DNA of 24,159 nt, taken from assembly GCA_964645485.1 (NCBI GenBank), contig CAZXZO010000024.1, positions 1 through 24,159 on the forward strand, in the 5' to 3' direction. Below are positions 1 to 18,595 of this stretch, piece after piece. The position numbers and the translations under genes were made by a program. A model generated the notes under the pieces. It was given only the letters and a program-made list of their open reading frames with translations, was not told the DNA's origin and made no database searches. Each line of letters begins with the position of its first letter. Positions within the stretch are counted from its first letter, which is position 1. The DNA is from an uncultured Candidatus Poseidoniales archaeon. GTDB lineage: Archaea > Thermoplasmatota > Poseidoniia > Poseidoniales > Thalassarchaeaceae.

Positions 1-3000
1 GAGAGTTATGTTTGGGTTATTGATAGCAGATTCACTATGATGCCAGAAGATTTCAGTTTGGAAGTAGGTCTTGAGAGATTTTGGTTTGATATTAGTGGGG
101 CGACACTATCCTTCCTTTCAGCATTGATTGGAATCGTTACCGGTCCTATTGATGAAACAGGAATCTCAATCGCATCGGTTGCCGCTCCCTATGCAATTCA
201 TGTTGACAATGTTGGGCAGACAGATTGTCCAGATGATTATGATGCCGCAACGATGCACTCTGCTGAATCAGACGTACATCGTTGTACCGTAGGTGTTGGA
301 TTTGGTTATGTTCACTTTGACGCACCGGCGAATGCAGGAGACAAAGAAATAAGTGAATTTGCTTACATTGACATTGGAATTCACCCGATTGAAACGAATG
401 TGATTTTACCTTCTGTAATTGATTTGGTTTTGAGAAACGACGATGTTCTCACTACTTCGTTTGGAATGACGGGAGAAGGTGGTTTAGACACAGTCGAGTA
501 CTTCGCTGATGAGAGAGCAGACCTTCATTTGCACTTCCACGAGAATCGTTCAAATATGGTCTCAGGGCCAGGTGAACCTTATGGAAATATCACAGATTCT
601 CTTGGTTGGTTGAGAGCGATGCCATCCGGACAATTGCCTTCTGATGAGGTTTCACGGATATTCCGAATGCTTGGAAGTGAATCCGCCCCAGAATTACCCG
701 GTCAAATGCCAGAAAGGGTTTCAATGATACTCGCTATCAAGAATTTCAGCAAAGATACAACTCCAAATAATGCTGACTCCACTTTACCAGTTGACCCAAC
801 TGACCCACCAAATACGTTGGTTGTCTTATTTGCAACTCAGTCAGTTGCTGAAATTGATTATTATTCTTGGTTCCAACGTGAGGGCGCAATTGATGACCAC
901 CGGCGTTTACGTATACATGCAACTGATTTACCAACAGGATTAGTTTTGCAAGGAAGTTTCCAACTAGGTAGTGGTGAGGCTGCGGAAGCGGCAATCGGCA
1001 ATGCCCAATCTGACCCAATCTCAGCACTGTTAGACGCAACAATTCTCAATATTGTTGATGTATTTATTGACATAGGGAACATCGTGAACAGTATCCCCGA
1101 AGCAATAGTAAATATTGTCGGAGGGGATGGAGATGGCACCGGAACAGGTGGCCAAATCTATCTTGACTTTTACACCTCGATTGCAGCAGACCGTCAATTG
1201 ATGAGCCTTGGAATGGCTCACATAGAATTGGGTTCTAGTGCACAGCCAACTACAGTTGGCCCGCATGTAATTATGGCATCAGACAAAGGGTTGGGTCTGG
1301 TAAATGGCAGGCGAGGAATGGTTGAACCGTTGGTACCAGTCGCTGTGAGTATCCAACTTGATGGACTAAAGTCGATACATATCGTTGATGATGAATTAGC
1401 AGAACAACAACTTGTTTCCTTGAGGTCAGAGGGTGGTGACCCATTACGATTTATCTATATGGAACACGAATCAAATTCTTTAGAGTCTGAAAGTTACCAG
1501 TCAGTCTATGCCTCAAATCAACCAGGCAGTCTTGACCTGTTAGTGAGTGAGGGCAACCTAACGTGGGAAAGTGATAGACGAATTGACGAGATTCTCTACT
1601 CCGGGCGCTCAGGACAGCAAAGGCAAGTAGTACTCATTGAGCAGTTCCCTCAAAATTTCACTATGGGGATGGGTTCTACTGTTGATTGGGTGGGCGATAC
1701 CCCAATTGGTGGAGTAACAATTCAGATGGGTAATGCAACCGATTTGCGAACAATGGATGGCGACCACTTTCAATTCTGGCAAAACATCGATACCAACGAA
1801 GCATCTCTATCAGCACATATTAGCGGGATTTCAGAAATTTCCTATTCTCAACCAGTGTTGGAAGGAAGTTCTGGAAGAGATGGGATGCCAACAGCAAGTA
1901 TTGTTACAGAGGGTGGAACTGATTTGGCAATTATGCTTAGAGATGAAACTGATTGGGATGACCCAACTCTAGGAATTAACGGTGAAATATTACTAAGTCC
2001 TTTGCCGGCAAATTTGGAAATTGCAATACCTCCATCTGATGACGACAATTCAATTCCGATGCCTTCTTTCTCGACTGAGAACGGACTTGGTGGAGTCGGG
2101 TTCTTCCTCGCTGGATTTTCAGATGTTGGGATTGGTGTCAATGATATTCTCAGTGGCTTTGCAACAAGCCTCACAGGCAATGGTTCAGGTAGCGAAGATT
2201 TCTCTGTAGGAATTAATCTTGAAACCGATGCACCATTTGATTTAATCATGGATATTCGCCAAGGAAGTATGCCATTAGAACAACCTGAATGGGTACATGG
2301 CATGGCGATGAGAGCAGGGCAGTATGAGAATAGCACAGCATTCCATTTGCTCTCTTGGTTACCAGACCTTCCTCCTCAAACCAATATATTCGTGGAATAC
2401 ACTAACATGAGTGTTCGGGACAAATATCATGTTGATATTGACCTTTCAGGATGGACCCCAATTCGCGAAGAATTCATCATTGACGTGCAAGGTTTTGAGG
2501 GTCAAGATTTCGCACTCACAATGTTTGGTTTTGAGATTGGACAACAAACCAGCCTTCAAGTGGAGATGGATTTGGAACGCATTAATGATTTAGCAATCCC
2601 AGAAATTCAGTTGACATCTCGTTATGAAATGTCACATACACTAGACTTTGTTCATGCAATGTTGCTCGACAGACAAGGGGCTACAAGGTCTGAGGTATTA
2701 CTCAACGATATTCCTCGCTCTGTTGACTTTAACGCTGCACTCGGTCAAAGAGTTCATCTTTCAATGACGGTGCCCGAAGAAGAACAAATCAACAAACGAA
2801 GTGTGGAATCAATTATGATGCAGCAACAAATTTACTCAGAAGGAAAATGGTGGCCACTTACTGTGTTTATCAATGAGGTTCCAGGCACAATGACTCTTGA
2901 TGTAAGGCCTTCTTTCAATTTTGATATTACTCAAGATACAAGTTTCCAAGGCATGCCTACTCTTGATTATACATCCTCAGGCAAGGGTATGGATTTGTTT

Positions 3001-3537
3001 ATGACAGCGGCTGGTAGAGCCATCAATAGTAGAGGAGATATGTTGATGCTAGCTGAAAATATGGCTAGCCATGTATCAATAGCGCCGACAGAAACTTTTG
3101 GCTTATCAGTATCATCATCTGAGGGTGGTATCGGCAGAATCTATGTCAAACAAAGAAATGTTCCTGCTTCACCCGGAATTACCGTTCAACAGGTCGAAGC
3201 AATCGGTGAAAACTTGCAGAGTGCTACGGTTGAAGCATATTGGATTGGAGATACCTATCCTATCGTGAAAGTAAGCGATGTCAGAGGTGGAAGGATAGCC
3301 GCTACCGCAAGAGTGCAAGCAGATTTAGGTGGGCAAACCTTTGATGCTAGAGCAGTTCTCATTGATGCTCAAACCACCAGTTTCATCCCTTCTGCCTCAA
3401 CGATGAATGTTAACGGTCTAACTAGTGATTTATCCCTACTAAATGCAGTTCCCGGATTTGACAGTTCATCAACACATTGGCTCTTCCCAGAGCCACTTTC
3501 AACAGCCGCGGCTACTTTGCTGTTTACAATTTTCTGA
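1..3537 (+). CDS. Large acidic, beta-rich, probably cell-surface protein of unknown function; 5'-truncated (>1178 aa)
   Basis: Frame 1 is open from base 1 (ESYVWVIDSRFT-MMPEDF), so ATG37 is not the true start. The protein is D/E/G/S-rich with alternating-hydrophobic beta segments, degenerate internal repeats and a hydrophobic C-terminus (FPEPLSTAAATLLFTIF). No family was recognised. Confidence 0.85.
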   Translation, partial: ESYVWVIDSRFTMMPEDFSLEVGLERFWFDISGATLSFLSALIGIVTGPIDETGISIASVAAPYAIHVDNVGQTDCPDDYDAATMHSAESDVHRCTVGVGFGYVHFDAPANAGDKEISEFAYIDIGIHPIETNVILPSVIDLVLRNDDVLTTSFGMTGEGGLDTVEYFADERADLHLHFHENRSNMVSGPGEPYGNITDSLGWLRAMPSGQLPSDEVSRIFRMLGSESAPELPGQMPERVSMILAIKNFSKDTTPNNADSTLPVDPTDPPNTLVVLFATQSVAEIDYYSWFQREGAIDDHRRLRIHATDLPTGLVLQGSFQLGSGEAAEAAIGNAQSDPISALLDATILNIVDVFIDIGNIVNSIPEAIVNIVGGDGDGTGTGGQIYLDFYTSIAADRQLMSLGMAHIELGSSAQPTTVGPHVIMASDKGLGLVNGRRGMVEPLVPVAVSIQLDGLKSIHIVDDELAEQQLVSLRSEGGDPLRFIYMEHESNSLESESYQSVYASNQPGSLDLLVSEGNLTWESDRRIDEILYSGRSGQQRQVVLIEQFPQNFTMGMGSTVDWVGDTPIGGVTIQMGNATDLRTMDGDHFQFWQNIDTNEASLSAHISGISEISYSQPVLEGSSGRDGMPTASIVTEGGTDLAIMLRDETDWDDPTLGINGEILLSPLPANLEIAIPPSDDDNSIPMPSFSTENGLGGVGFFLAGFSDVGIGVNDILSGFATSLTGNGSGSEDFSVGINLETDAPFDLIMDIRQGSMPLEQPEWVHGMAMRAGQYENSTAFHLLSWLPDLPPQTNIFVEYTNMSVRDKYHVDIDLSGWTPIREEFIIDVQGFEGQDFALTMFGFEIGQQTSLQVEMDLERINDLAIPEIQLTSRYEMSHTLDFVHAMLLDRQGATRSEVLLNDIPRSVDFNAALGQRVHLSMTVPEEEQINKRSVESIMMQQQIYSEGKWWPLTVFINEVPGTMTLDVRPSFNFDITQDTSFQGMPTLDYTSSGKGMDLFMTAAGRAINSRGDMLMLAENMASHVSIAPTETFGLSVSSSEGGIGRIYVKQRNVPASPGITVQQVEAIGENLQSATVEAYWIGDTYPIVKVSDVRGGRIAATARVQADLGGQTFDARAVLIDAQTTSFIPSASTMNVNGLTSDLSLLNAVPGFDSSSTHWLFPEPLSTAAATLLFTIF

Positions 3538-3547
3538 GGTGCAAAAT

Positions 3548-4201
3548 ATGGCTAAAAATCAACCAGAAGGCGCCTTCAATTTAGTTGGCGATTCCAAGAA
3601 TCCCAGTCTTGAAGAGGTTGAGATTGATGATGGTGAAGAATTTGTAGAGGTGGGTGGAAAAACCTTCTCAAAAGATGAGGTTGAATTGGCCCATGAAGCA
3701 CTAGAAAAAGTGCGGGAAGTTGGGGAGAGGGTTAGCCGAGTAATCACTCCACTGAATGTGGTGCTAGCATCTATTTTTATGGCATTTTTAATTTTCACTT
3801 CATTCGCAGTTGTGTTCTGGGTTGTACCCCGTGATGCAGTCTCGGTTGATTCTGTTTACATGCAAAGCGGGCCAGGTCATGTGGTGATGGTTGAGTTGCA
3901 CAATTATGGCACACAATCAATTACAGATGTGACTCTCATTGTTACATTTACTGATGATGATGGTGAAGTCTTGAACTCAACTAGATTTTACCGCTCGGAA
4001 ATTGCAGCCCATACCTCAATTGCTGGTGATGACCTTGAGTTGGTGATTGGCGGAGCCACTGTATGGGCAAATTATCAAATTATAATTGAATTAGAGTATT
4101 CCTACTATGGTGGTGAGGATTTGACTGAATCTTGGAACCATCAAGTTGGTGATTGGAGTAGTGAACATTTCACTGATAAAACCGAGCGCCATTGGTTCTG
4201 A
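3548..4201 (+). CDS. Type II single-pass membrane protein with a C-terminal Ig-like (CARDB/FxLYD-like) domain, 217 aa
   Basis: ATG3548 follows GAGGTG (3536-3541), which overlaps the upstream stop, so it is preferred over the track start at 3443. It has an acidic N-terminus, a TM segment (LNVVLASIFMAFLIFTSFAVVFWVV), then VELHNYGTQSITDVTLIVTFTDDDGEVL, the N-x-G ... V-x-F-x-D-x-x-G pattern of Ig-like FxLYD/CARDB domains. The domain name is an inference. Confidence 0.8.
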   Translation: MAKNQPEGAFNLVGDSKNPSLEEVEIDDGEEFVEVGGKTFSKDEVELAHEALEKVREVGERVSRVITPLNVVLASIFMAFLIFTSFAVVFWVVPRDAVSVDSVYMQSGPGHVVMVELHNYGTQSITDVTLIVTFTDDDGEVLNSTRFYRSEIAAHTSIAGDDLELVIGGATVWANYQIIIELEYSYYGGEDLTESWNHQVGDWSSEHFTDKTERHWF

Positions 4202-4270: not shown

Positions 4271-7200
4271 ATGTCAAACCGCTATTCTGCATTATTTATG
4301 TTGATAATGTTGCTACTGATGCCAATGGGCTCACTTCTGCCTGATAAGGCAGAATCAGATGATTTCAGCGGCAATGAATTGCGTTCAATCGAATATATTT
4401 TGATTGAACCAGACCCAAACAGCATTCGTGGATTGAACAATTCTATTTTGTCGGAGGGAACCGAACAAATCCGTTCAACCGAAGCCTCAACAAGAATTGG
4501 AATCTATGATTCAGATGGATTGAGGTTGAATAAAATCATCCCGCCTTCGTTGGCAGTTTCTAGATTCGATATTGCTATGGTTTTAGTTGATGGAGAGGTT
4601 GGATTATGGGAGGCCCAAGAAGAAATTACATCAATCAAAGGCGTGGAAATCAGAGCCTATATTCCGCCCTCTGGTTTCTTTGTCCAAGGAGATGCAACAT
4701 CTCTTCAAGCAGTAAAATCTCTACCCTCAGTCATAGCAATTCACCCGGTTCCCCTAGCAATGTTCGTTTCGGACGAATTGCTTGAGAATCAAATTAGTGA
4801 AAGTTCATTCATCAGGATTGAAGGATGGCGCTCAAACATCGATAGTTCACTTACTGATGGAGTCAATATCGCAGGATTGGCATGGAGTGTTAGCGAAGTT
4901 GCACAGTCAGAAATGATAGTTGATTCTACTCTTGATGTTGGTCGCTACGAAGGCTGGGTGAAAGTAGATGACATCCCTGTCATCGCGGCAAATCCAGCAA
5001 TTTCATGGCTCAGAATCCCTCCAGTTTTTGAAATACATAATTCCGAAGCAAAGGGTCACATGAAGGTGTCATCTATCGTTTCGGCATTTGGCACTACTCT
5101 CAATGGTAGCGGGCAAATAATTGCTGTTGCAGATTCTGGTCTTGACCAAGACCATGGAGACATGAACGGTAGGATTAACGCCGTGGTGTCTGTAGTGAGT
5201 GGGGATTCGTCAACCGAAGATACACACTCTGGCCACGGTACTCATGTTTCGTGTACAGTTCTTGGTGATGGAAACAGGGGTGGGTATTCCGGAGTTGCTC
5301 CAGAGGCTAACTTGTATTTCCAAGCCATGGAAAGAGATAGTGATGGGCAATTCTACTCTCCAAGTATGAACTACTTACTCAATGCCGCATACAATAGTGG
5401 TGCAAATATACACACTAATTCTTGGGGTTCCCAAACGAATTTTGGAAAATATACAACTGATAGTGCAGATGTCGATGATAGAACTAATCATTACGACCAA
5501 TATTGGTCCTATGATGGCATGGTGGCACTATTTTCAGCAGGTAATGATGGGAGCGGGGCTGGCACAATAACTCCGCCAGCGACAGCAAAAAATCAGATTG
5601 CAGTCGGTAACCACCACAATCGAGGTGGCGGGGCTCCTGATACTCTAGCAAGTAGTAGCAGCCGTGGCCCAACTGAAGATGGCCGCATTAAACCAGATGT
5701 ATCTGCACCGGGTGCATGGGTGCGGTCATGCCGCTCTCAAGATGCAACTGACACCGGTGGGGCAAGTTGGTCAAGTCAATGGTATCTAGAATATTCTGGG
5801 ACATCGATGGCTGCTCCAAATGCCGCGGGAGCATCAGCACTTATTCGCGAATATCTGATGGAAGTAGCACACCGGCCTGAACCTCAAGGCGCTTTGGTGA
5901 AGTCATTACTGATTCTTGGCGCCGAAGATATGGGCACCCGTAATATTCCGAACAATGACGAAGGTTGGGGCAGAGTAAACTTGCAACGCTCATTAGCAGC
6001 AATTGGTGATACTGGGGTTTGGGTAGATGACCGCAATTACTTACGTAGCGGTAACAATCGTGATTACTCATTCAATCTAACACATGGTTGGCAACAACTG
6101 AAAATTGTTCTTTCATGGTCTGATTACCGCGGTAGCACTTGGGCCACAGACCAATTACAAAATGACTTAGATTTGTTAGTAACTGCGCCCGATGGTACAA
6201 CTACATATTTGGGTAATGTCTTTGAAAACGGGCGCTCAGTTTCAGGTGGAACAGCTGATGATGTCAACAATGTTGAGGTAGTTCTGATTGATCAAGCCCA
6301 GAAGGGAATTTGGACAGTGAGGGTGTCGGATGTACGCCATGGTGGGCAAAAATCTGAGCAGACATATGCGCTGGCTATTCGTGGTGCTGGCGTTGATGAT
6401 TTGTCTCCTGATGCCGCATTTGTGCCACAGTCGTTTTCACTCTCAGACCCAATACCACAAGTGAATGAACAAGTTACTTTTACAGCACAAGTTTCCAATA
6501 TGGGAAGCCGGGTAATGGATGACTTACAGGTCCGTGCAAGTGCTGGGGGTCAGGTACTAAACACCCAAACTATCAGCCTTGGTCCCGGTGAAGTAAAGGG
6601 ATTGAATTGGCAATGGACTCCAGTTTCAAATGGTGACAATGACATCATCATTGAGGTAGACCCAACGGATGCTTTTGATGAGTTGGATGAGGCGAACAAT
6701 ATCCTACTTGTGACCGTAGGTGTTACTGAGCCAGGGGTTCGCGTAACTACTCAAAGCGTGATTGAAAGAGTCAGGGATTCGACTAGTAATACCGCGCAAT
6801 GGAATCTCACAATCAAAAACACCGCATTAATACCGACAAATGCGACTATTTCCGTCGAGAAGCCAATTCGTCAAAGTGATGGCCAACAATTCAACGATTG
6901 GTTCCAATCATTTTCTCAGACAACATTTGCTCTCAACGGTTCACAAGCAGTGGATGTTGGGTTGACTATGGTGCATCCTTCTCCACCTGAACCGGGAATT
7001 TATCAATTTACGGTGACCGGAAGGGATGTTGACAACAATATAGATTATCCAATAACCTTGACTTTGGATGTTCCTGTTCTACCTGGATTCAGATTTGATA
7101 ATCTGAATCAAATTTCTGTGTCCCCAGTTGAAAACACTTCATTTGATGTGACTATGTATAACGAAGGCAATGGCCCACAGGGTTGGGATTTGACTCTTGA

Positions 7201-9397
7201 CGCGCCCTTTGGGTGGCATCTTGGTTTCGACTCTCTAGGCTCAATCGCTGGCTCACCTTCTGCATCTTCTGGATACATTGCTTCTTCTACTTCTCAGGTT
7301 TCAAGAGTAACTCTAGTGCCGCCAACTGACCACCTCGTTTCATCTGGAACCTTGCTTAGCGGTTCATTGACGGCAGTTTCCCAATTAGATAACAGCTTGT
7401 CATGGAATCTTGGGTTTGATTTCATAGTCACCGGATACCGAAATGCCAGTATACTCAATGAGTCAAGTTTCGGTAGTTTACGGCCCGATAGTCAATTGAA
7501 TCTTAGATTCACAGTTATGAATGAAGGAAATATTGAACTTACGCTAAATCCAACAGTGGAATTACCCGGTGGTTGGGCGGTGTCCAATCAACTCCCAACC
7601 ATGACTTTACAACCCTCTGAAACAAAATCTCTAGTTGTTGGTTTACAAGGAAATGGAGTCGCTGCAGCAGGACCAATCGAGTTGATATTGATTGATAGTT
7701 CTGGATTCCGAATCCAATGGGAGGGATATTTAGATGTTCAATCTGTACCCCAACCAAGCATCAGTTTTGATGAGATAATTTTGGCTGATGGTACAAGGTC
7801 TTCTAGCATATTTGGATTGGGAGACCACGCTGTGGGTATGCCTGGATTTAGATTGGTTTGGTTGGTGACAAATAGCGGGGCTCAACCTTGGACTCCAATG
7901 ACCCAATTATTGCTTCCATCAAGCGCATGGACCGGGATGTGTGATCCAATTTCAGAAGTGGCACCAAATAGTGGTGAACGCGTTGAATGTCTAATTGTGA
8001 TGCCACCTAGTACCGATGCTGGAAGTGAACCAGCAGTAACCATGCAAATTACAATTGATGATGTCCAAATATCAAACACTTTAACCTTGAAAACTGCTAC
8101 TACAAAGAATGTACAATGGGAGAACTATGTTGAGCCAGAAACCATCGTGGAGGGTGTGAAAACCACTTTTTCAATTGATGTTGTTAATGATGGAAATGCA
8201 CCCTTGTCGCACCGTATAGGTGTTACCGGCCCGAACGGTTGGGATGTGGAGATTCTCAACGGTAAAATGGTTGAGTTATCGGCTGGTGAGGCTCGCACAT
8301 TGACGGTTGAAGTAATGGCAAATGAACCAGGTCTTGGTACCCTTGTGCTTTCCCTTCTTTCTGCTGATGATGTTTCAGGTTCATCTCATAGCATCGAATT
8401 TGATGTCACTGATGACCCTAATCGAGAAGTAAGTTCAAGTGGGGGAACAATGCAAATAATTGGGGCGATTATACTACTACTCTTGCTTTGTGTTGGTGGA
8501 TTTGTTCTAGTTTCAATGCGGAAGCAAGAGTCAACATCAAATTTCAATTTAGGGAAAAATTCAGGGAATTTGCCTATTCCTCCACCCAATTCAGCAGGGC
8601 TTGGTTTACCTCCGCTACCAAATGGTGGTTCACAACTCCCTCACTTAGAAGGTCTCGAACAATTACCACCTCCTCCAAAGAATAACGCCAGTGGAACACA
8701 GTCGCAAGTTGCACCAGGCGGGGTTGCTAGTGGAGCCAAGAATCCCAAGGGGATGGGTAGTTTCCCACTTCCACCGCCACCTCAATCACATCCAGCACAG
8801 GCTCCTCCTGCTGATGCTTTTGTTAAGGTAGAAGATGAAGCCCAAGTGCAGTCTCAAGATGGAAATTCAGTACAATCTCAAGATACAGATTCAGAAGATG
8901 ATTCTGTTACTAGCACTGAAGTTGGCGAGGAGGCTGAAGTTGCACAACTACCACAACCAGCCGAAGTAGAGGAAGTTGCAGAGGTGGCTGAAACTGCTGA
9001 GGTTGCAGAAACTGTCGACCCGGCTGAGGTGGCTGAAACGACTCAGGTTGCCGAAGAAGTGGAAGTGGCTGACCCGGCTGACCCGGCTGAAGTGGCTGAA
9101 ACTGCCGAAGTTGCCGAGGTGGCTGAAGTGGTCCAACCGGCAGAGGAGACAGAAGTGGCTACAACGGCCGAAATGGCGGCAATTCCACAACAAGAGGAAT
9201 CAAAGCCCGAACAGAGCGATGAAGCCGACCCAAATCACAAGTGTTGGGTTTGCCTTGATATTCTTCCAACTAAGGGTTGGCAAGCGTGTCCAAAATGTGG
9301 AGCACGCTATCATTTAAGCGATTCTGAATGTGGGATTTCCAAACTATCAAATTGCCGGAATTGTGAAGGAAAAATATCCGATTTTGTGAAGGTGTGA
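4271..9397 (+). CDS. Membrane-anchored S8 family (subtilisin, KP-43-like) serine peptidase with CARDB/NEW3-like Ig domains, TM helix and cytoplasmic Pro-rich, acidic and zinc-finger tail, 1708 aa
   Basis: Signal peptide present. Catalytic D288 (IAVADSG), H322 (HGTHV), oxyanion N425 (FSAGND) and S512 (GTSMAAP). A KP-43-type C-terminal beta domain (LKIVLSWSD..NDLDL..NNVE) and a CARDB-like module (VDPTDAFDELDEANN) follow. N-x-G Ig motifs occur at 6497, 6818, 7160, 7520, 7871 and 8186. The TM at 8456-8518 is followed by RK, and a C-terminal Cys/His cluster lies at 9242-9364. Confidence 0.95.
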   Translation: MSNRYSALFMLIMLLLMPMGSLLPDKAESDDFSGNELRSIEYILIEPDPNSIRGLNNSILSEGTEQIRSTEASTRIGIYDSDGLRLNKIIPPSLAVSRFDIAMVLVDGEVGLWEAQEEITSIKGVEIRAYIPPSGFFVQGDATSLQAVKSLPSVIAIHPVPLAMFVSDELLENQISESSFIRIEGWRSNIDSSLTDGVNIAGLAWSVSEVAQSEMIVDSTLDVGRYEGWVKVDDIPVIAANPAISWLRIPPVFEIHNSEAKGHMKVSSIVSAFGTTLNGSGQIIAVADSGLDQDHGDMNGRINAVVSVVSGDSSTEDTHSGHGTHVSCTVLGDGNRGGYSGVAPEANLYFQAMERDSDGQFYSPSMNYLLNAAYNSGANIHTNSWGSQTNFGKYTTDSADVDDRTNHYDQYWSYDGMVALFSAGNDGSGAGTITPPATAKNQIAVGNHHNRGGGAPDTLASSSSRGPTEDGRIKPDVSAPGAWVRSCRSQDATDTGGASWSSQWYLEYSGTSMAAPNAAGASALIREYLMEVAHRPEPQGALVKSLLILGAEDMGTRNIPNNDEGWGRVNLQRSLAAIGDTGVWVDDRNYLRSGNNRDYSFNLTHGWQQLKIVLSWSDYRGSTWATDQLQNDLDLLVTAPDGTTTYLGNVFENGRSVSGGTADDVNNVEVVLIDQAQKGIWTVRVSDVRHGGQKSEQTYALAIRGAGVDDLSPDAAFVPQSFSLSDPIPQVNEQVTFTAQVSNMGSRVMDDLQVRASAGGQVLNTQTISLGPGEVKGLNWQWTPVSNGDNDIIIEVDPTDAFDELDEANNILLVTVGVTEPGVRVTTQSVIERVRDSTSNTAQWNLTIKNTALIPTNATISVEKPIRQSDGQQFNDWFQSFSQTTFALNGSQAVDVGLTMVHPSPPEPGIYQFTVTGRDVDNNIDYPITLTLDVPVLPGFRFDNLNQISVSPVENTSFDVTMYNEGNGPQGWDLTLDAPFGWHLGFDSLGSIAGSPSASSGYIASSTSQVSRVTLVPPTDHLVSSGTLLSGSLTAVSQLDNSLSWNLGFDFIVTGYRNASILNESSFGSLRPDSQLNLRFTVMNEGNIELTLNPTVELPGGWAVSNQLPTMTLQPSETKSLVVGLQGNGVAAAGPIELILIDSSGFRIQWEGYLDVQSVPQPSISFDEIILADGTRSSSIFGLGDHAVGMPGFRLVWLVTNSGAQPWTPMTQLLLPSSAWTGMCDPISEVAPNSGERVECLIVMPPSTDAGSEPAVTMQITIDDVQISNTLTLKTATTKNVQWENYVEPETIVEGVKTTFSIDVVNDGNAPLSHRIGVTGPNGWDVEILNGKMVELSAGEARTLTVEVMANEPGLGTLVLSLLSADDVSGSSHSIEFDVTDDPNREVSSSGGTMQIIGAIILLLLLCVGGFVLVSMRKQESTSNFNLGKNSGNLPIPPPNSAGLGLPPLPNGGSQLPHLEGLEQLPPPPKNNASGTQSQVAPGGVASGAKNPKGMGSFPLPPPPQSHPAQAPPADAFVKVEDEAQVQSQDGNSVQSQDTDSEDDSVTSTEVGEEAEVAQLPQPAEVEEVAEVAETAEVAETVDPAEVAETTQVAEEVEVADPADPAEVAETAEVAEVAEVVQPAEETEVATTAEMAAIPQQEESKPEQSDEADPNHKCWVCLDILPTKGWQACPKCGARYHLSDSECGISKLSNCRNCEGKISDFVKV
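8957..9181 (+). repeat. Intragenic 9-bp-period tandem repeat encoding (E-V-A / E-T-A / D-P-A)n
   Basis: Encodes PAEVEEVAEVAETAEVAETVDPAEVAETTQVAEEVEVADPADPAEVAETAEVAEVAEV. GACCCGGCT is directly duplicated at 9071/9080, and GACCCGGCTGARGTGGCTGAAAC occurs at 9017 and 9080. A hand count gives 109/180 G+C over 9001-9180. Confidence 0.85.
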
Positions 9398-9448
9398 ATA
9401 CAAATGAAACACGATGCACCTGAAATTCAGAGTAGCCGCATATTCATC

Positions 9449-9472
9449 AAGGAGGGGTGGGCTTCGCCCACC
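9449..9472 (+). promoter_or_regulatory. SD (AAGGAGGGG) followed by a GC-rich hairpin abutting the probable start codon
   Basis: GGTGGGC-TTC-GCCCACC (9456-9472) is a perfect 7-bp stem lying directly before ATG9473. Confidence 0.5.
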
Positions 9473-12109
9473 ATGCGTACGAGCCGGAGCACCTCTCGCT
9501 ATGCGGCGTTTTTGTTCACTTCTCTGTTGGTTCTGTCCTTTGTTCCAACGGTTTCGGCGAGTATTGGTGTGTCTGTTTCATCTAGCCCGATGGCCCTTAC
9601 GGTAAATCCCGGGGAAAATGGTTCTTACACTATTACCGTGACAAATACCGGCGACGAAGACATGACTGTTTCACTAACTACCTCTCAAGCCCAAGATTGC
9701 ACTGGATACACTTCAACGATTGAACAGATTCCAGGGCAGATTTCAGGTGGTGGTTCCGAAACCACCACTCTTACGGTAGCGCTTGCACAAAATGCTGAAG
9801 GCAGTTGCGAAACCACTGTTACTGCAACAGCAACTGCACCACTAAATGCTCCAGAGACTGGAGATGTGATTGTGACTACAACCGCTGGCGAAGGTTCAGG
9901 TGGGGCGATAACTGGAGTTGACTTAACTTCATCAAATCCCGACCGGACATTCAATGGCGCCAACCCTGTAACATGGACAGTTAATGTGGAAAACACTGGT
10001 CAAACAAATGAGTCAATCCAATTGTCTTTTGAGAGCAACGCAACATGTGAATCATCTCTCTCTGCGTCGGTCGACCCCTCAGTGGTAACAGTTGACAGCG
10101 GTGAAAGCGAGGTTGTAACCGTTGAAGTCACAGTTCCAGAAGGAACCGAGGCTGGCAGCCATTGTTTCTATCTCAAAGGAGTTGTTACCACGCCTACAAC
10201 TCCTGAGCAGTCTTCTGATTTCATCAAATTATTCCTCGAGGTTCCCGAAATGAAGGAATGTAGCGCTTCGCTATCAGTTTCAAGTGCTTTAATTGATCCA
10301 GATGAAACTAAGAGTTATTCAATCACTTTCCACAATGATGGAAATACTGATTGGACAATAGGATTCTCCGTAAACAGTCAGAAGACGTGGCTGAGTGTAG
10401 ATGGAGGTTCAACCCAATTACTGCCTTACAATGGCGGTAACGGGCAAACAAATTTCCAGTTTGATATCACTCCGGATGATTCGCTTCCAGCCGGGAGCAT
10501 TGTTGATTTCAACATCATGGGGCTAGATGGTTCATCTCAGAAATGTAGCGCATTGTTCCAAGTTGAATTAGGGCAATCACGTGCTGGAAATGTGCAGTTA
10601 GAGTCCTCAAGAATTGATAATATTGAACCCGGGACAACTCGTTCTGTAGTGATTACTGCGTACAACTATGGCAATGGCCAAGAGACATTCTCCATTGGAG
10701 TTAGTAGCCAAGCGGGATGGGTTTCACAACTTGATTCAAGTTCAATCGCTTTAGAAGGGCGTCACTCATCTTCTGGTTCAAACGGAGCGATTCTGCTTGA
10801 TATTACTGCGCCAGAAGACGCATTAGCAACAGATGAACTGACATTTGATGTCACAATATTTGCAGCCGATGGTACACCATATGGTTCTGACACGCTCACA
10901 GTAACTGTCGCTGCGCACCGTTCAATGAGTGCAGATATGCAAGCAACTGAACAGTTTGGTAAGACGGGAGAAACTTCTCGATTCCCGGTCACTTTTACTA
11001 ACACAGGAAATATTCAAGACTCATTCACTCTCAGTTTGTGTGACCAACCACCATCATCAAATCCAAATCTTTGTGATTCACCTAATTGGCCAGGTCGATT
11101 TTCAGATTCACTAGGTTCAGAAATCACTAGTGTTTCACTTGCTGCTGGGGCATCAGTCACTGTCTACGCAGAAATTACTGTTGAAGGAGAGGATGAGTTC
11201 GAATCAGAAAACTTCCAAGTCCGTATCAAAAACGTAAATGACGGAACAGTCCAAGAGAGATTCGACTTGAGGGTAATTGTCTCCAACCACGTTTATCGCA
11301 TGGGTATGGCGTTACAGTCACCAGGTGAAATCCCTGACATGCAGGAACTAGAGTTACCCCCCATGGGTGAGGTAGAAGTTAGGGTTATCGTCACTAATGT
11401 AGGCTCATCTTCATACACCGAAGAAGCGATTATTTCAGTATCCGGGATGGAAGCTGAAACTATGGTTGATGTGTATTATGAAAACGGGACCATTGTAGAA
11501 GGCAAAATCGAGTTGGAAAAGGATGAGTCTATCGTTTTAAGGCTTGTAATCAATATTGAAGAAGGTGTACCAAATGGTGTATCTGGCTTGATAAAAGTTT
11601 CAGCGGCTTCAAGTCGCAATGCAGCAGAGTTGTCAACCGTGAAAATTTCACTTTCCATTAGGACAAATCATGAGATTGACTTTGAGGTTGATGGAGATGT
11701 TGATTCATCAATAGTTTATGGTGAGATTGCTAGAATATCGGTTAACATCACGAACAGTGGAAACATAGAGGAAACTATCCGCTTGTTGAGTAGCAATCCT
11801 GTGCGTGGATGGGCGATTGAAATCACTGAAGAAGAGGTCTTGCTTGAACCAGGAGAAACTAGGGCTGTAGAAGTGATTGTTAAGCCTCCAACAAATCTGA
11901 TGCAACCCGATACCTTCGAGTTTACATTGACTGCAGAACCGGCATCTTCTCCGGTCTCAGCGCAACCAATTGACCTATCTGTTTCAGCCACTCCGCCGAC
12001 TGGATTATTCGGTAGTGGTGGCAACTTGCAAGTGATTGGACTAACTTTCCTCACGCTCCTTGTTTTCGGCGCAATTGTGTCATCAATTCGCGCTCGAAGA
12101 AATGCATAA
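9473..12109 (+). CDS. Membrane-anchored surface protein of seven Ig-like (NEW3/NPCBM-associated, COG1470-like) modules
   Basis: From ATG9473 there is a typical Sec signal (MRTSRSTSRYAAFLFTSLLVLSFVPTVSA). Seven N-x-G motifs at 9644, 9992, 10334, 10664, 11000, 11396 and 11753 are spaced 110-132 aa apart. Eight Cys occur in apparent pairs. The C-terminal TM ends in a basic tail (LQVIGLTFLTLLVFGAIVSSIRARRNA). The alternative start ATG9404 (weak AAGGTG SD) cannot be excluded. Confidence 0.85.
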   Translation: MRTSRSTSRYAAFLFTSLLVLSFVPTVSASIGVSVSSSPMALTVNPGENGSYTITVTNTGDEDMTVSLTTSQAQDCTGYTSTIEQIPGQISGGGSETTTLTVALAQNAEGSCETTVTATATAPLNAPETGDVIVTTTAGEGSGGAITGVDLTSSNPDRTFNGANPVTWTVNVENTGQTNESIQLSFESNATCESSLSASVDPSVVTVDSGESEVVTVEVTVPEGTEAGSHCFYLKGVVTTPTTPEQSSDFIKLFLEVPEMKECSASLSVSSALIDPDETKSYSITFHNDGNTDWTIGFSVNSQKTWLSVDGGSTQLLPYNGGNGQTNFQFDITPDDSLPAGSIVDFNIMGLDGSSQKCSALFQVELGQSRAGNVQLESSRIDNIEPGTTRSVVITAYNYGNGQETFSIGVSSQAGWVSQLDSSSIALEGRHSSSGSNGAILLDITAPEDALATDELTFDVTIFAADGTPYGSDTLTVTVAAHRSMSADMQATEQFGKTGETSRFPVTFTNTGNIQDSFTLSLCDQPPSSNPNLCDSPNWPGRFSDSLGSEITSVSLAAGASVTVYAEITVEGEDEFESENFQVRIKNVNDGTVQERFDLRVIVSNHVYRMGMALQSPGEIPDMQELELPPMGEVEVRVIVTNVGSSSYTEEAIISVSGMEAETMVDVYYENGTIVEGKIELEKDESIVLRLVINIEEGVPNGVSGLIKVSAASSRNAAELSTVKISLSIRTNHEIDFEVDGDVDSSIVYGEIARISVNITNSGNIEETIRLLSSNPVRGWAIEITEEEVLLEPGETRAVEVIVKPPTNLMQPDTFEFTLTAEPASSPVSAQPIDLSVSATPPTGLFGSGGNLQVIGLTFLTLLVFGAIVSSIRARRNA

Positions 12110-12298: not shown

Positions 12299-12772
12299 GT
12301 GGACAGGTTGGTAGTAGAAAGTGTCCCCTCTGCTTACCTCGGACTCGCGATAATGACAGTGGTCGGTTTTGGCTTTCCATTTGGGGCGTTTTTGACTTCA
12401 AGATTTCTTCGCCCAACTCCTGACCCAAATAATCCAACTAAACTAAGTTCAATTCTTTTGGATGGGCTTGAATCGGACCATTCACTGTATTCTCGAGGTG
12501 ACTCTACTTACGAGTGTGGTTCTAATCCACTAGGGGATGCTATGATTGATTTCCACTTCCAGTATTATTGGTATGCAATCATTTTCTTAGTGTTTGATAT
12601 TGCCTTTATGTTCCTAGCATTTGGCGGTTTACTCTCAATGAATGCACAGCCAAATTCCCCTGATACAATTGAATTGGCAGTTGGTGGATTAGTCACTGTT
12701 GGAGTATTCCTAGCGCTGATGTCGCTTGGAGTTTGGTATGCGTTTCGTAAGCGGGGCAGAATTTACATTTGA
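12299..12772 (+). CDS. nuoA: Complex I-like (Fpo-like) oxidoreductase subunit A
   Basis: Three TM segments with the conserved YECG loop and YYWYAIIFLVFDIAFMFL motif. The start is uncertain: GTG12299 or TTG12308 (SD GAGGGTG at 12291-12297). There is no in-frame ATG before TM1. Confidence 0.9.
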   Translation: MDRLVVESVPSAYLGLAIMTVVGFGFPFGAFLTSRFLRPTPDPNNPTKLSSILLDGLESDHSLYSRGDSTYECGSNPLGDAMIDFHFQYYWYAIIFLVFDIAFMFLAFGGLLSMNAQPNSPDTIELAVGGLVTVGVFLALMSLGVWYAFRKRGRIYI

Positions 12773-12781
12773 GGTGATTAG

Positions 12782-13375
12782 ATGTCGGATGAAACACAAA
12801 ATTATGCAGTATTCAATAGCCAAGCGCTAATTGATACAGTTGGCGATAGTGCTAGTGCCGGATTAGAGGCAAGCCGCCTAAAGAAATTCATCAGCGTTCT
12901 AGGAGGGCGTTTCTTCAACTGGGGACAAAGAAAATCATTGTTCCCGCTCCACCTAGGAATCAAATGTTGTGCATTAGAAATGGCTGCTGCTGGTGGTTCA
13001 AGATTTGACGCAGAACGATTTGGCGTGTTTTTCCGTTCTTCGCCACGTCAGTGCGACGTTATGCTTGTTAACGGGCCCATCTCTAAGAAATTCGCTGACC
13101 CGATTGTCCGTTTGTGGGAGCAAATGCCGGAACCAAAGTGGTGCATTGCAATGGGTGAATGTGCTATTTCAGGGGGTCCATACTACCAATCATACAACAT
13201 TCTTGAAGGCGTAGATACAATAATTCCTGTTGATGTTTACATCCCAGGTTGCCCACCTCGTCCTGAGGCTTTGATTGATGGATTCCAACACCTTCGTAAG
13301 AAAATCATGAGGATTGGTACAACACCTAGCACCGTTAGAGATGACGACGCGCCAATTATTGTTGGAGACCAGTGA
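12782..13375 (+). CDS. nuoB: Complex I-like subunit B (N2 [4Fe-4S] cluster)
   Basis: Tandem-Cys motif GIKCCALEM, plus SPRQCDVMLVNG, WCIAMGECAISGG and VDVYIPGCPPRPEAL. SD GAGGTGA at 12771-12777. Confidence 0.97.
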   Translation: MSDETQNYAVFNSQALIDTVGDSASAGLEASRLKKFISVLGGRFFNWGQRKSLFPLHLGIKCCALEMAAAGGSRFDAERFGVFFRSSPRQCDVMLVNGPISKKFADPIVRLWEQMPEPKWCIAMGECAISGGPYYQSYNILEGVDTIIPVDVYIPGCPPRPEALIDGFQHLRKKIMRIGTTPSTVRDDDAPIIVGDQ

Positions 13376-13398
13376 ATAAGGAGGGGTCTAGGGTGGGG

Positions 13399-14058
13399 AT
13401 GAAGATTTTAGAAGAATATGCGGAAGAATCTGCGCAGCAGGTTGTTGATGCAGCATCCACTCGATGGGGTGGTGCAGGCTTGGATGCTGAAGTCCGCCAC
13501 CACAAGAGTGGAATGAAGCGCCCATATGTGTTCATTAATTGCCCCAAAAATCACTGGCGAGCGGTTGCAAAGTGGCTTCGCTTTGAGATGGGCGCTGACC
13601 ATTGTTCAATGATTACAGGAACTCATTGGCCAGAAGGCTCAGATGAGAAGAAATGGGAAGTTGTTGTCCACTTGATGCGAATGAATGTCATCAATCCACC
13701 AGAGCGTGGTGGATGGACCGAACAAGTAATTCGCGACCCTTCAATTTTACAAGATAATGATGTTCCGATGGAATTTGAAATCAGTATTTCAATCCCTGAT
13801 ACTCGAAACCCAACTGTTCAGTCTGTGCAAGAGGTATGGATGGGTGCTGATTGGAATGAAAAGGAAACTTGGGACTTAGTTGGAATCGAGTTCGAAGGCC
13901 ATCAGGGTATGCGTAGAGTTTTGCAGCCTCATGATACACCGGTTGGATTCCACCCCCTACAAAAGGAACACAAGATTCGCTACCATGATTCTGAAATCAT
14001 GTATGATGATCCACAAGGATTCGGACGTAAACCGGCCGATGATGGCAAGGTAAAGTGA
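13399..14058 (+). CDS. nuoC: Complex I-like subunit C
   Basis: Motifs CSMITGTHW, SVQEVWMGADWNEKETWDLVGIEFEGH and HPLQKE. ATG13399 follows AAGGAGGGG/GGGTGGGG. GTG13372, overlapping the nuoB stop, is the alternative start. Confidence 0.92.
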   Translation: MKILEEYAEESAQQVVDAASTRWGGAGLDAEVRHHKSGMKRPYVFINCPKNHWRAVAKWLRFEMGADHCSMITGTHWPEGSDEKKWEVVVHLMRMNVINPPERGGWTEQVIRDPSILQDNDVPMEFEISISIPDTRNPTVQSVQEVWMGADWNEKETWDLVGIEFEGHQGMRRVLQPHDTPVGFHPLQKEHKIRYHDSEIMYDDPQGFGRKPADDGKVK

Positions 14059-14068
14059 GGTGAAAATT

Positions 14069-15205
14069 ATGGCAGAAATGTGGATATCAATGGGCCCTCA
14101 ACACCCAATGACTCACGGTCTTTGGACCCTCAAAGTAAAGGTTGATGGTGAAACAGTTGTTGACACTGTTCCAGATTTAGGTTACATTCACAGAGGCGTA
14201 GAGAAGATTTGTGAATCAAGAGATTTCACCAAGATTACAACTTACTGTGACCGCCTTTGTTATGCAAGCGCAAACACTTGGGCACATTCGTATATTTATG
14301 CAGCTGAAGATTTGTTGGAAGTTGAAGTTCCAGCCCGGGCTGAACACATCAGAGTCATTGCAGTTGAATTGCAAAGGATTGCTAGCCATTTGATGTGGCT
14401 TGGCGCGTTCTGCCCTGATATTGGAAACTTGACTGCCTTCGTTTGGTGCTTGAGAGAGCGAGAAATGATGATGGATTTACTGCAAGAACTCGGCGGTTCA
14501 AGATTGCACTACAATTTCCCAAGAATTGGTGGTGTCAAGAGAGACCTTCCAATTGGATTCGCAATGCGAGCGCGCGCTAAACTCAATCTATTCCTTGACC
14601 GAATTCAGGAAACAGAACAAATGCTTGACGAGAGCACAGTCTTCCTAGTCCGTACTCAAGGAGTGGGATATGCAAAACCCGAAGAGATGGTCAATCACGG
14701 GGTAACCGGGCCAAATGTTCGTGCTGGTGGAGTCAATTACGATATTCGCTGGGCACACCCATATTCTGTATATGATGAACTCGATTGGGATGTTTCAGTC
14801 GAGCGTCCATCAATCAAGGGAGCAGATTGCTACGACCGCTATCGCGTGCGGGTAGACGAAATGCGTCAAAGCGCACGCATGTGTCTAGACGCTCTTGACA
14901 AGATGCCTGGTGGTGCTGAAACTCACTACTCTGAGGGCGACCCAATGATTCTAACAAAAGCGCGGGAGCGCGCTGAAGAAGGCAAGACTGGATTCCACCA
15001 CTTTGAGGATAGCCGGGGTGAATCGATGTTCTATCTTGCAGGCGGTGGGGAACAGCGTGGCAAGCATCCATACAGGATTTCAATCCGTTCACCTATGTTC
15101 ATTACAATTCCTTATGCTGCAAGATGCATGATTGGTCACAAAGTGGCTGATATTCCAGCCATCATGGGTTCTTTCGACCCTTGTATTGGGGAGACTGATA
15201 GGTGA
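14069..15205 (+). CDS. nuoD: Complex I-like subunit D (49 kDa/FpoD family)
   Basis: Motifs GPQHPMTHG, GYIHRGVEK, DRLCY, ELQRIASHL, GDCYDR-like ADCYDRY, EDSRGE and the C-terminal SFDPCIGETDR. The track's GTG14060 lies inside the SD GAGGTGA (14057-14063), so ATG14069 is the likely start. Confidence 0.97.
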   Translation: MAEMWISMGPQHPMTHGLWTLKVKVDGETVVDTVPDLGYIHRGVEKICESRDFTKITTYCDRLCYASANTWAHSYIYAAEDLLEVEVPARAEHIRVIAVELQRIASHLMWLGAFCPDIGNLTAFVWCLREREMMMDLLQELGGSRLHYNFPRIGGVKRDLPIGFAMRARAKLNLFLDRIQETEQMLDESTVFLVRTQGVGYAKPEEMVNHGVTGPNVRAGGVNYDIRWAHPYSVYDELDWDVSVERPSIKGADCYDRYRVRVDEMRQSARMCLDALDKMPGGAETHYSEGDPMILTKARERAEEGKTGFHHFEDSRGESMFYLAGGGEQRGKHPYRISIRSPMFITIPYAARCMIGHKVADIPAIMGSFDPCIGETDR

Positions 15206-15214
15206 GGTGGCATC

Positions 15215-16768
15215 ATGGAAGATTGGGTAGTTTTTCGTACATGGGTTGGCGATTTAACTCAAATGATTGCTGAGGCCACAGTTGGTCAAACACGATTTCA
15301 CGAATATTCAGATGGTGTCGCTTCTGTCATGACTGAAAGCATCATGGCGGTCACAGTTTTTGCTACAATCATGGGCACAATCCTTGCCCTTTTATGGATT
15401 GAGAGAAAATTTTTCGCTCGTATAATGGACCGTCGGGGAGCAACAATGGCCCTTCGTTCACTATGGGTTGGAGAGGGTGGTCAACACGCTGACTGGTATG
15501 ATGACTTACCATTTGGTACAGGAAAACCAATTCGATGGTTAAACAATCTTCTAAACGAAAAAGCTGGAAACGCTTCTGATTATGAAACAGTTCACAGAAC
15601 TAAGGATAGAGGATATCACGGTGTTTGGTGGTTGTTGCCAGGAATGATTCAAAATGTTGCAGATGGCATGAAGTTCATGACTAAGGAATGGATGGTTCCA
15701 GCAAAGGCTGACAAATTCATTTTTGAGGTTGCACCATTCATCATCATCACATCTACAGTGATGATTTTTGCATTCATACCTCTGAGTTCCAATATTTATT
15801 CAGCAAATCCTGAATTGTCTTTATTGTTTATGATGGCAATTTTTGGTATCGCTCCGTTTGGAGTTTTCTTTGCTGGCTGGTCATCAAACAACAAGTATAC
15901 TCTTCTTGGTGGTATCCGCTCAGCGGCACAACTGACAGCATATGAAATTCCTTTGTTAGTAACAATACTTTCTTTGGCAGTTATATCGGGCTCATTGAAT
16001 ATCATTGAAATTGCCGAATTCCAAATTACTTCGGGTGTATGGAATATTTTCCTACTACCTCTTGGGGCGGCATTATTCTTGATTACAATGGTTGCTGAAG
16101 TTGAACGAATTCCGTTTGATATGCCAGAGGCCGAAGCAGAACTTGTTGAAGGCTGGTGGACTGAATATGGTGGAATGCGCTGGGGATTGATGTTTGCAAG
16201 CGAATATCTCCGATGTTATGCTGCGTGTTTGCTCTTTGCAATCTTCTTCCTTGGGGCATGGGAAATGCCCTTTGGTGACACAATTACAGGAATTATCCCT
16301 AACCAAGATCTAATTCTTGGTGCAATCGGTGTAGGCCTAATTGGTTTAGCGATTGGGCTACGAAGTGAATTCCCTGTACTACTCGCTCCAGTGCCATTGG
16401 TATTTATTTCAGTGATTCCACCAACTGCTTGGCTACTGTTCAAAGCATGGTTCATGTTTGCAATATTCGTTTGGATTCGAGCATCATTGCATCGAATTAG
16501 GTCAGACCAAATTCTTGAATTTGGATGGCGCTGGTTATTGCCGCTGTCACTAGTTAACTTGGCAATCGCATTTTGGCTCCGTCTTTCAATTTGGCCAGGC
16601 GATGAATGGCCATTACTCATTCCAGGATTAATTACCGCTATCGCATTAATACTCTTCATCATTCTTGGAATGGATGAAGATAAATCAGCAATGGAAGGCA
16701 GGACAAGACCGTATTCGGTTTACACCAAATCAAAAGGTCCAGCCTCACCAAGGAGCCATGATAGGTAA
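15215..16768 (+). CDS. nuoH: Complex I-like subunit H, enlarged (517 aa)
   Basis: Motifs WIERKFFARIMDRRG, QNVADGMKFMTKE, SNNKYTLLGGIRSAAQLTAYEIP, AEVERIPFDMPEAEAELVEGWWTEYGG and RIRSDQILEFGWRWLLP. SD GAGGTGG. Confidence 0.97.
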   Translation: MEDWVVFRTWVGDLTQMIAEATVGQTRFHEYSDGVASVMTESIMAVTVFATIMGTILALLWIERKFFARIMDRRGATMALRSLWVGEGGQHADWYDDLPFGTGKPIRWLNNLLNEKAGNASDYETVHRTKDRGYHGVWWLLPGMIQNVADGMKFMTKEWMVPAKADKFIFEVAPFIIITSTVMIFAFIPLSSNIYSANPELSLLFMMAIFGIAPFGVFFAGWSSNNKYTLLGGIRSAAQLTAYEIPLLVTILSLAVISGSLNIIEIAEFQITSGVWNIFLLPLGAALFLITMVAEVERIPFDMPEAEAELVEGWWTEYGGMRWGLMFASEYLRCYAACLLFAIFFLGAWEMPFGDTITGIIPNQDLILGAIGVGLIGLAIGLRSEFPVLLAPVPLVFISVIPPTAWLLFKAWFMFAIFVWIRASLHRIRSDQILEFGWRWLLPLSLVNLAIAFWLRLSIWPGDEWPLLIPGLITAIALILFIILGMDEDKSAMEGRTRPYSVYTKSKGPASPRSHDR

Positions 16769-16783
16769 TAGGAGGAAGTAAGT

Positions 16784-17740: not shown

Positions 17741-17745
17741 GGAAG

Positions 17746-18015
17746 ATGATGCCAGATTTACTTGAGCATGTTGCATTCGCAATTTTTGCTTTCTTGTCAA
17801 TTATTGGTTCTCTTGGAACAATTTATGCCAAGCGAATAGCTCACTCGATGTTTTGGCTGATTGTTTGTTTCATGGCTATTGCTGGTGTTTTCATTCTTGC
17901 AGGTGCTGAATTGCTTGCGGCAATTCAGATTTTAGTCTATCTTGGTAGTGTAATGTTGGTATTTGCTTTTGGAATAATGTTAGCCCGCAGAACAATTCAG
18001 GAAGGTGATGCTTAA
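17746..18015 (+). CDS. nuoJ: Complex I-like subunit J, N-terminal half (J1)
   Basis: Three TM segments with AHSMFWLIVCF and AAIQILVYLGSVMLVFAFGIML, matching NuoJ TM1-3. ATG17746 (or 17749) is preferred to TTG17737. Confidence 0.9.
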   Translation: MMPDLLEHVAFAIFAFLSIIGSLGTIYAKRIAHSMFWLIVCFMAIAGVFILAGAELLAAIQILVYLGSVMLVFAFGIMLARRTIQEGDA

Positions 18016-18583: not shown

Positions 18584-18595
18584 GGAGGGATTTCA

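Follow-up and report, generated by a model that had tools for sequence, protein, structure and literature searches.

A putative RING-like finger at the inner end of a conserved Poseidoniales surface protease

What might a RING-like zinc finger do at the cytoplasmic end of an extracellular protease, in an archaeal order whose searched genomes yield no ubiquitin-conjugating enzyme (E2)? The question is raised by a gene located at 4271-9397 on the forward strand of a stretch of 24,159 nucleotides (contig CAZXZO010000024.1 of assembly GCA_964645485.1, here called the window) from an uncultured Candidatus Poseidoniales archaeon of the Thalassarchaeaceae. The Poseidoniales, or Marine Group II, rank among the most abundant planktonic archaea; they have yet to be cultured, and proteins and other polymers are thought to sustain them. 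The gene encodes a protein of 1708 residues that reads as a type I membrane-anchored S8 subtilase with a finger-bearing cytoplasmic tail; its gene belongs to the core of the order, where it is nearly universal and syntenic. With a probability that we put at about 0.55, the finger is a divergent RING-like docking or anchoring module that works independently of any E2.

The finger and the protein that carries it

The C-terminal domain of 57 residues (9224-9394, forward strand) holds eight putative metal ligands in the pattern C-x2-C-x11-C-x2-C-x4-H-x5-C-x7-C-x2-C, from C1658 (nucleotide 9242) to C1698 (nucleotide 9364). A first-pass annotation, made from the sequence alone, had picked out this pattern together with its span and its His-to-Cys gap of five residues, and it proves correct in every coordinate and spacing. 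Throughout an alignment of 31 non-identical finger domains (A1) all eight ligand positions are kept, with the single exception of H30, which is replaced by Cys in one homologue, as would be predicted of a metal ligand. Residues C7, W8, C10, C22, C25, G26, R28, Y29, C36, C44, C47 and F54 are invariant. We infer that the domain binds zinc, and the alignment, the structural model, the fold matches and the profile comparison described below point to a binuclear, Prok-RING_1-related finger.

The same finger is spread across the order. Eight full-length orthologues (1582-1648 residues) came out of a word-index search with the tail. All of them end in the finger, and two carry the source labels Thalassarchaeaceae or Euryarchaeota MAG (metagenome-assembled genome). 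When the 69 C-terminal residues were used as a phmmer query against 1.84 billion representatives, 24 of the 27 matches were true; all 24 sit at the extreme C-terminus, and a transmembrane (TM) helix and a Pro-rich stretch precede them wherever upstream sequence is present. The search for other proteins of the lineage ending in this finger, which the first-pass annotation had proposed, was run with the A1 profile and matched 176 of 201 sampled Poseidoniales genomes (58 of the 61 of high quality); close orthologues carry the domain. Both large families are represented (78/99 genomes in f1 and 97/99 in f3), and across the order the match almost always ends a frame of 1470-1650 residues. Since the ligands are kept in 31 sequences and the domain recurs in so many genomes, the finger is not a chance cluster of Cys residues. 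It is single copy in the window's own genome, where the possible paralogues among the remaining weak matches came down to a zinc-ribbon protein and an unrelated RpoP-like ribbon. The second match of the finger profile in that genome, a weak one, lies in a frame of 446 residues (L005, contig C31) that combines a pair of zinc-ribbon motifs with a long C-terminal run of G-G-P-P-S-R-G repeats.

The protein upstream of the finger has the features of a secreted protease. A putative N-terminal signal peptide (4271-4354, about residues 1-28), taken straight from the translation, has a basic start followed by a hydrophobic core and then an acidic stretch, and a hydropathy scan finds two segments only, this peptide and a single TM helix. 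The Peptidase_S8 catalytic domain (5105-5971, residues 279-567) scores well above the Pfam cut-off (E 5.4e-44; 151 bits against 21.8) and preserves the triad motifs D288 (AVADSG), H322 (HGTH) and S512 (GTSMA), which makes for an active-looking protease as judged from its sequence. It is followed by a P-domain-like region at residues 630-692, slightly below the 21-bit cut-off (E 6.6e-4, 20.2 bits), by an immunoglobulin (Ig)-like CARDB domain (6449-6703, residues 727-811; E 1.3e-13) and, as the final ectodomain module, by an Ig-like NPCBM_assoc/NEW3 domain (8150-8323, residues 1294-1351; E 1.3e-08). All these features lie on the forward strand.

The TM helix (8456-8524, forward strand, residues 1396-1418) is followed by R-K and by a tail of 290 residues, both as first annotated. 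In all homologues Lys or Arg stands immediately after the helix, and the stretch preceding it is acidic or Ser-rich. Because the protein combines a signal peptide and secreted-type domains with these basic residues, the positive-inside rule would place the tail in the cytoplasm, and the proposed layout of ectodomain, helix and inner tail is thus upheld. In its intact D/H/S triad, P-domain-like region, CARDB and NPCBM_assoc domains the protein resembles ordinary membrane-anchored subtilases with CARDB/Ig stalks. These, however, end right after the anchor with a few basic residues, as does the neighbouring gene product encoded at 9404-12109, whereas the Poseidoniales protease continues for the full length of its tail.

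Fold of the finger and its relation to Prok-RING_1

The first-pass annotation had read the domain as a RING-like finger and not as paired zinc ribbons, and structural modelling favours this. The AlphaFold2 model built with A1 reaches a predicted local distance difference test score (pLDDT) of 90.3 and a predicted template modelling score (pTM) of 0.74, and its central beta-hairpin flanks the second Cys pair, as in RING-class folds. In an exhaustive VIA-align search the top 50 matches are almost exclusively RING, U-box and ZZ domains, with residues 1-57 covered, 45-52 residues aligned, Z scores of 4.0-5.3 and root-mean-square deviations (rmsd) of 1.9-3.0 Å. They include the Prp19 U-box (Z 5.2, rmsd 1.9 Å, 47 residues aligned), the BIRC7 RING and TRIM37 (Z 5.2 each), Nse1 (Z 5.1, 29% identity) and EL5 RING-H2 (31% identity). 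Foldseek gives no match against the PDB at E<=1e-3, and its top matches are RINGs (TRIM37, EL5 RING-H2, RING1B and IDOL) intermixed with rubredoxins. Searching the PDB by sequence profile returns weak matches only, namely 2nb9 (second half only), the C1 domain of ARHGEF2 (E 0.007) and the RING-CH domain of K3. Given the uniformity of the VIA-align list and the identities of up to 29-31% within it, the ligands can be argued to superpose in RING order. The model thus supports assignment of the finger to the RING-like fold class, and we infer from it that the ligands are paired in a cross-brace.

The same data bear on the opposite view, according to which the domain would consist of two independent, DZR-like zinc ribbons, possibly as part of a membrane-tethered regulator that binds nucleic acids. 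Its first half, C-x2-C-x11-C-x2-C, does resemble a zinc ribbon, and weak matches to DZR (PF12773) and Zn_ribbon_3 occur in 31/31 and 21/31 A1 members, respectively, besides the rubredoxins found by Foldseek. All such matches nevertheless fall below the curated cut-offs, the window's finger lying far below the 27.3 bits required by DZR, and they cover one ribbon-like half, which for DZR is the first. The full-length structural matches are cross-brace folds, profile comparison leads to Prok-RING_1, and the protein has neither a basic surface nor a release mechanism. We therefore hold two separate ribbons to be very improbable.

Within the RING class, the C4HC3 ligand order and the C-x2-C-x4-H stretch are shared with PHD fingers; the best structural matches include ZZ and U-box domains. 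On the other hand, the H-x2-C knuckle is replaced by a loop of 4-6 residues, and neither PHD nor ZZ is among the Pfam matches listed for the finger. Indeed, no Pfam family matches the window's finger above threshold; Zn_ribbon_3, DZR and Prok-RING_1 (PF14446) appear at 12-17 bits. Prok-RING_1 matches 27 of the 31 A1 members at E<=1, with a best E value of 3.8e-4. This family was reportedly described by Burroughs, Iyer and Aravind in 2011.

A scan of 301 Thermoplasmatota genomes with PF14446 provides the context for this similarity. Matches above the cut-off were found in 21 genomes, none of them from Poseidoniales, and no Poseidoniales genome in the scan has a match at E<=1e-4. Most of these canonical domains sit at the extreme C-terminus, 30-40 residues past a TM helix, behind ectodomains with PKD, Big, cadherin or CARDB modules, and follow the pattern C-x2-C-x11-C-x1-2-C-G-A-x-Y-H-x2-C-x6-C-x2-C. 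At 52-60 bits, the strongest matches close frames of about 1590-1620 residues in families f30 and f37 (L029-L031, L039-L040). The last 550 residues of these frames contain neither a TM helix nor any other Pfam domain, and their genomes have no E2 match; they represent a separate type of giant, RING-ended protein.

Twenty Prok-RING_1 domains from other Thermoplasmatota, most of them above the cut-off and the rest just under it, were aligned (A2) and compared with A1 by hhalign, which gives a probability of 95% (E 3.9e-8, 43 columns), on the understanding that Cys-rich profiles can inflate such scores. Both groups have the first half C-x2-C-x10-12-C-x1-2-C-G-A-x-Y-H in common, together with eight ligands in C4HC3 order, a terminal C-x2-C accompanied by an aromatic residue, and a position at the extreme C-terminus after the TM helix of large Ig/CARDB-bearing surface proteins. 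They part company in the second half, where the Poseidoniales finger has an insertion of 2-4 residues after the His (H-x4-6-C for H-x2-C) and seven residues instead of six between C6 and C7, that is, one more before the last Cys pair; W8 and R28, moreover, are invariant in the Poseidoniales finger and variable in the canonical one. The resemblance to Prok-RING_1 suggested at first pass thus holds in profile comparison, but not at the Pfam cut-off or in the length of the His-Cys gap. In view of the hhalign probability and the layout shared with the canonical tails, the Poseidoniales finger is most plausibly a divergent relative of Prok-RING_1 that is specific to its lineage. A TM helix followed by a cytoplasmic Prok-RING_1 domain is an already described arrangement; what is new here is the fusion to an S8 protease, the altered spacing and the E2-free background.

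Ubiquitin-type machinery in Poseidoniales and their relatives

A RING-like finger brings to mind a ubiquitin ligase (E3), and the first-pass annotation had linked the tail to signalling or to protein turnover through a ubiquitin-like or SAMP system. The genome check that this suggested gave a divided answer. The window's own genome (82% complete) encodes ThiF-type activating enzymes (E1s) along with a JAB and a ThiS-like protein, but they are ordinary archaeal sulfur-carrier and cofactor genes; UQ_con, Prok-E2_B and ubiquitin gave no match in the same assembly. More broadly, the UQ_con E2 domain was found in 0/59 high-quality Poseidoniales genomes and in 0/63 Poseidoniales of the phylum sample, in a search that recovered it above cut-off in 77 of the 301 Thermoplasmatota genomes and thus included its own positive control. 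The Poseidoniales therefore differ from other lineages of the phylum, where an E2 is present in 23 of 34 genomes with Prok-RING_1 matches and in all 11 genomes of family f5; these figures are counts and not statistics, related genomes not being independent. In one f5 genome with canonical tails (G267; L053:5275-6630:-), a UQ_con E2 (56.7 bits) is encoded in a co-oriented cassette between a JAB peptidase and a beta-grasp-like protein of 85 residues, which ends in V-G-G plus an extension of eight residues. Membrane-tethered Prok-RING_1 tails and UQ_con E2s are hence candidates for membrane E3 systems outside the Asgard archaea, and the Poseidoniales appear to be without the ubiquitin-like/E2/JAB cassette that accompanies the canonical tails elsewhere.

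The finger sequences diverge along the same line. In canonical tails the residue before C2 is hydrophobic and the last pair often reads C-P-x-C; the position before C2 and the Pro after C7 are those that contact the E2 in RING ligases. Neither feature is conserved in the Poseidoniales finger, which has V, A, S, T, G, M or Q ahead of C2 and C-[RIV]-x-C as its last pair. With no E2 recovered from the Poseidoniales genomes searched and the E2-contact-like residues variable, a role as a ligase or in turnover is not supported in this order, and neither is the link drawn at first pass. A genuine ligase or adaptor could still be imagined that recruits a SAMP/ThiS-type modifier with its E1, or some unrecognised E2-like protein, and marks for turnover either the tail of the protease or proteins in its vicinity. 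Homology to Prok-RING_1, with its membrane-tethered versions co-occurring with E2 and an entire cassette in sister lineages, would favour it, as would the ThiS-like, ThiF and JAB genes of the window's genome. Apart from the failure to find an E2 in the genomes searched and the variable contact positions, however, the SAMP conjugation of Haloferax is not known to need an E3, and we deem such an activity improbable. A bolder version, in which the finger would be a RING left over from a lost ubiquitin system, would derive it from membrane-tethered Prok-RING_1 ligases, retained on a core surface protease after loss of the E2 and now either ligating independently of E2 (e.g. with a ThiF-type E1 and a SAMP-like modifier) or carrying information inward; we regard it as a long shot. 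The receptor-like sensing that the first-pass annotation attributed to the protease is speculation.

The first-pass annotation had also likened the protein to the eukaryotic PA-TM-RING ligases, such as RNF13, GRAIL and the plant RMR proteins. The layout agrees, since in both cases a luminal or extracellular domain is joined through one TM helix to a cytoplasmic RING-class finger. The likeness does not extend to the parts, as a Pfam scan finds no PA domain in the Poseidoniales protein, whose ectodomain is instead the S8 protease, and the finger is of C4HC3 type with altered spacing and not a RING-H2, in a lineage whose searched genomes lack a detectable E2. The resemblance is thus read as one of analogous layout and not as evidence of homology between the whole proteins.

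The tail, its substitutes and its neighbours

Between the helix and the finger lies a low-complexity linker (8525-9223, forward strand, residues 1419-1651), which begins Pro-rich, with PPPP motifs, and continues as an acidic stretch rich in E, A and V, for a net charge of -40. Its acidic, AEVAET-type part is encoded by imperfect tandem DNA repeats with periods of 9, 18, 45 and 63 bp (8960-9141, forward strand; Tandem Repeats Finder). Expansion by these repeats accounts for the longest spacer seen between helix and finger, the 243 residues of the window's own protein (against 30-200 elsewhere). Among homologues the spacer ranges from 30 to 243 residues; it measures 30-42 in many lineages and 30-60 in most, and 165-243 in the window's genus. 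Because its length is so variable the spacer is read as a tether, the conserved unit being the TM helix and the terminal finger. A Pro-rich motif, [FY]-P-L-P-P-P-P-Q (window 8700-8830, about residues 1480-1520), is conserved in those orthologues of the window's family that have long tails and missing from short tails of about 40 residues; it could act as a short linear binding motif.

The short distance between finger and helix in most lineages could also be taken to mean that the finger binds membrane lipids and pins the tail to the inner leaflet, in the manner of FYVE and C1 domains, which are likewise binuclear treble-clef fingers. The invariant Trp and Arg are compatible with such a role, and sub-threshold similarity to C1 domains does exist, both in the ARHGEF2 match and in the C1_1 matches of 6/31 A1 members. 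Yet the C1 and FYVE matches are weak, and in structure the finger comes closest to RING, U-box and ZZ domains instead. The finger is also near neutral (8 K/R against 6 D/E), and the long linkers of the window's genus would be needless for a membrane-apposed module. Lipid binding thus strikes us as decidedly doubtful.

The position held by the finger is not reserved for it. The S8 orthologues of two genera (g9 and g13; L049, L050; 35-36% identity) have tails that close with a Trp-rich motif, EYPGWLWD...W-[IV]-PDPDH (YPGW-x-WD-x5-W-[IV]-P), in place of the finger; the motif may form a Trp-zipper-like hairpin and appears to be an interchangeable tail module. The same type of motif ends a protein of 1097 residues in the window's own genome (contig C6). 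Two proteins of 820-841 residues from the exhaustive search (P0022, P0024) carry Trp-rich repeats upstream of the finger. A census of the window's genome identified seven proteins of at least 690 residues in which a TM helix is followed by a tail with a Cys finger at its C-terminus, the S8 protease included. The other six (693-1401 residues; contigs C5, C12, C42, C4, C15 and C6) consist of an ectodomain, a TM helix, a low-complexity tail and a Cys finger, which in one case is a further C4HC3 finger with a canonical H-x2-C and in five a 4-Cys ribbon of C-P-x-C type. The 8-ligand finger of the 1401-residue protein on contig C5 (L004:1492-3126:-) was considered as a homologue of A1 but shows no detectable homology to it, scoring only 5.8 bits with the hidden Markov model in spite of the same layout.

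The protease gene is the third of a four-gene surface cluster that is syntenic in 6/6 Poseidoniales genomes examined, from both large families, and that is followed directly downstream in all six by the co-oriented nuo (complex I) operon (12299-24159 in the window). The first gene (1-3537, forward strand, truncated at the window start) encodes a giant protein with no Pfam family and a hydrophobic C-terminus. The second (3548-4201, forward strand) has its putative start at M36 of the open reading frame 3443-4201, going by the alignment of orthologues, and specifies a type II membrane protein of about 217 residues (about 200 across the six genomes), in which a TM helix separates a variable N-terminus in the cytoplasm from an Ig-like ectodomain. 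This N-terminus was considered as a partner for the finger and discarded, being poorly conserved in both length and sequence. The fourth gene (9404-12109, forward strand) encodes an Ig-repeat surface protein of 901 residues with a C-terminal TM helix and a short basic tail only.

Several of these observations would suit a passive cap or rivet, a stable knob without a specific partner that keeps the anchor from being extracted when the ectodomain of 1400 residues is pulled, or that shields a disordered tail from degradation starting at its end. Different small folds take the same terminal position within one genome (an 8-ligand finger, five 4-Cys ribbons and a Trp-rich motif), the Trp-rich motif substitutes for the finger in S8 orthologues, the length of the linker is unconstrained, and the conserved cluster contains no apparent partner gene. 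Even so, the neighbouring 901-residue surface protein manages without a cap, and the tight, order-wide conservation of the finger, non-ligand residues W8 and R28 included, is more than fold stability usually needs. We consider a passive cap rather unlikely, while acknowledging that interchangeable minimal folds at one position fit it and a family of adaptor handles alike.

The docking module that we favour would work as follows. The protease would be held in the membrane as a type I protein of the Poseidoniales surface cluster, and its cytoplasmic tail would be a flexible spacer of variable length ending in a binuclear, cross-braced zinc finger; working without E2, the finger would serve as a small protein- or peptide-binding handle and dock the inner end of the protease to a cytoplasmic or membrane-proximal partner. 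Independence from E2 is preferred because no E2 was found in the genomes searched and the contact-like residues are not conserved, and a docking handle is preferred because the RING-class folds PHD, ZZ, MYND and B-box are commonly modules that bind peptides or proteins. This is how a docking role and a putative partner are arrived at, and a number of points weigh against them. No partner is apparent among the conserved cluster genes. The finger is not indispensable, as the Trp-rich tails of g9 and g13 show, and in the one genome searched from a third family (f2, g14) the tail is short and lacks both the finger and the Trp-rich motif; the plain 4-Cys ribbon ends of the window's genome, in turn, suit a generic role for any small stable fold equally well. 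With regard to the fold, Z scores of about 5 are modest for a domain of 57 residues and rubredoxins do figure among the Foldseek matches. With regard to the family, the window's finger scores 12.9-13.7 bits against a Prok-RING_1 gathering cut-off of 29.1, no family member has been shown to reach that cut-off, the DZR and zinc-ribbon models match equally weakly, and the caution attached to the hhalign score applies.

No published description of a RING-like finger on a Poseidoniales protease was found in the literature searched. The contrast between the Poseidoniales and their sister lineages, in which canonical membrane-tethered tails occur together with a eukaryote-like E2, amounts to a natural experiment on RING-class fingers with and without a ubiquitin-type system, and as such it is relevant to how membrane-bound E3 ligases evolved early on. 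For the Poseidoniales themselves, the strict conservation of a cytoplasmic RING-like finger implies that the surface proteolytic apparatus of these archaea is physically connected to something inside the cell.

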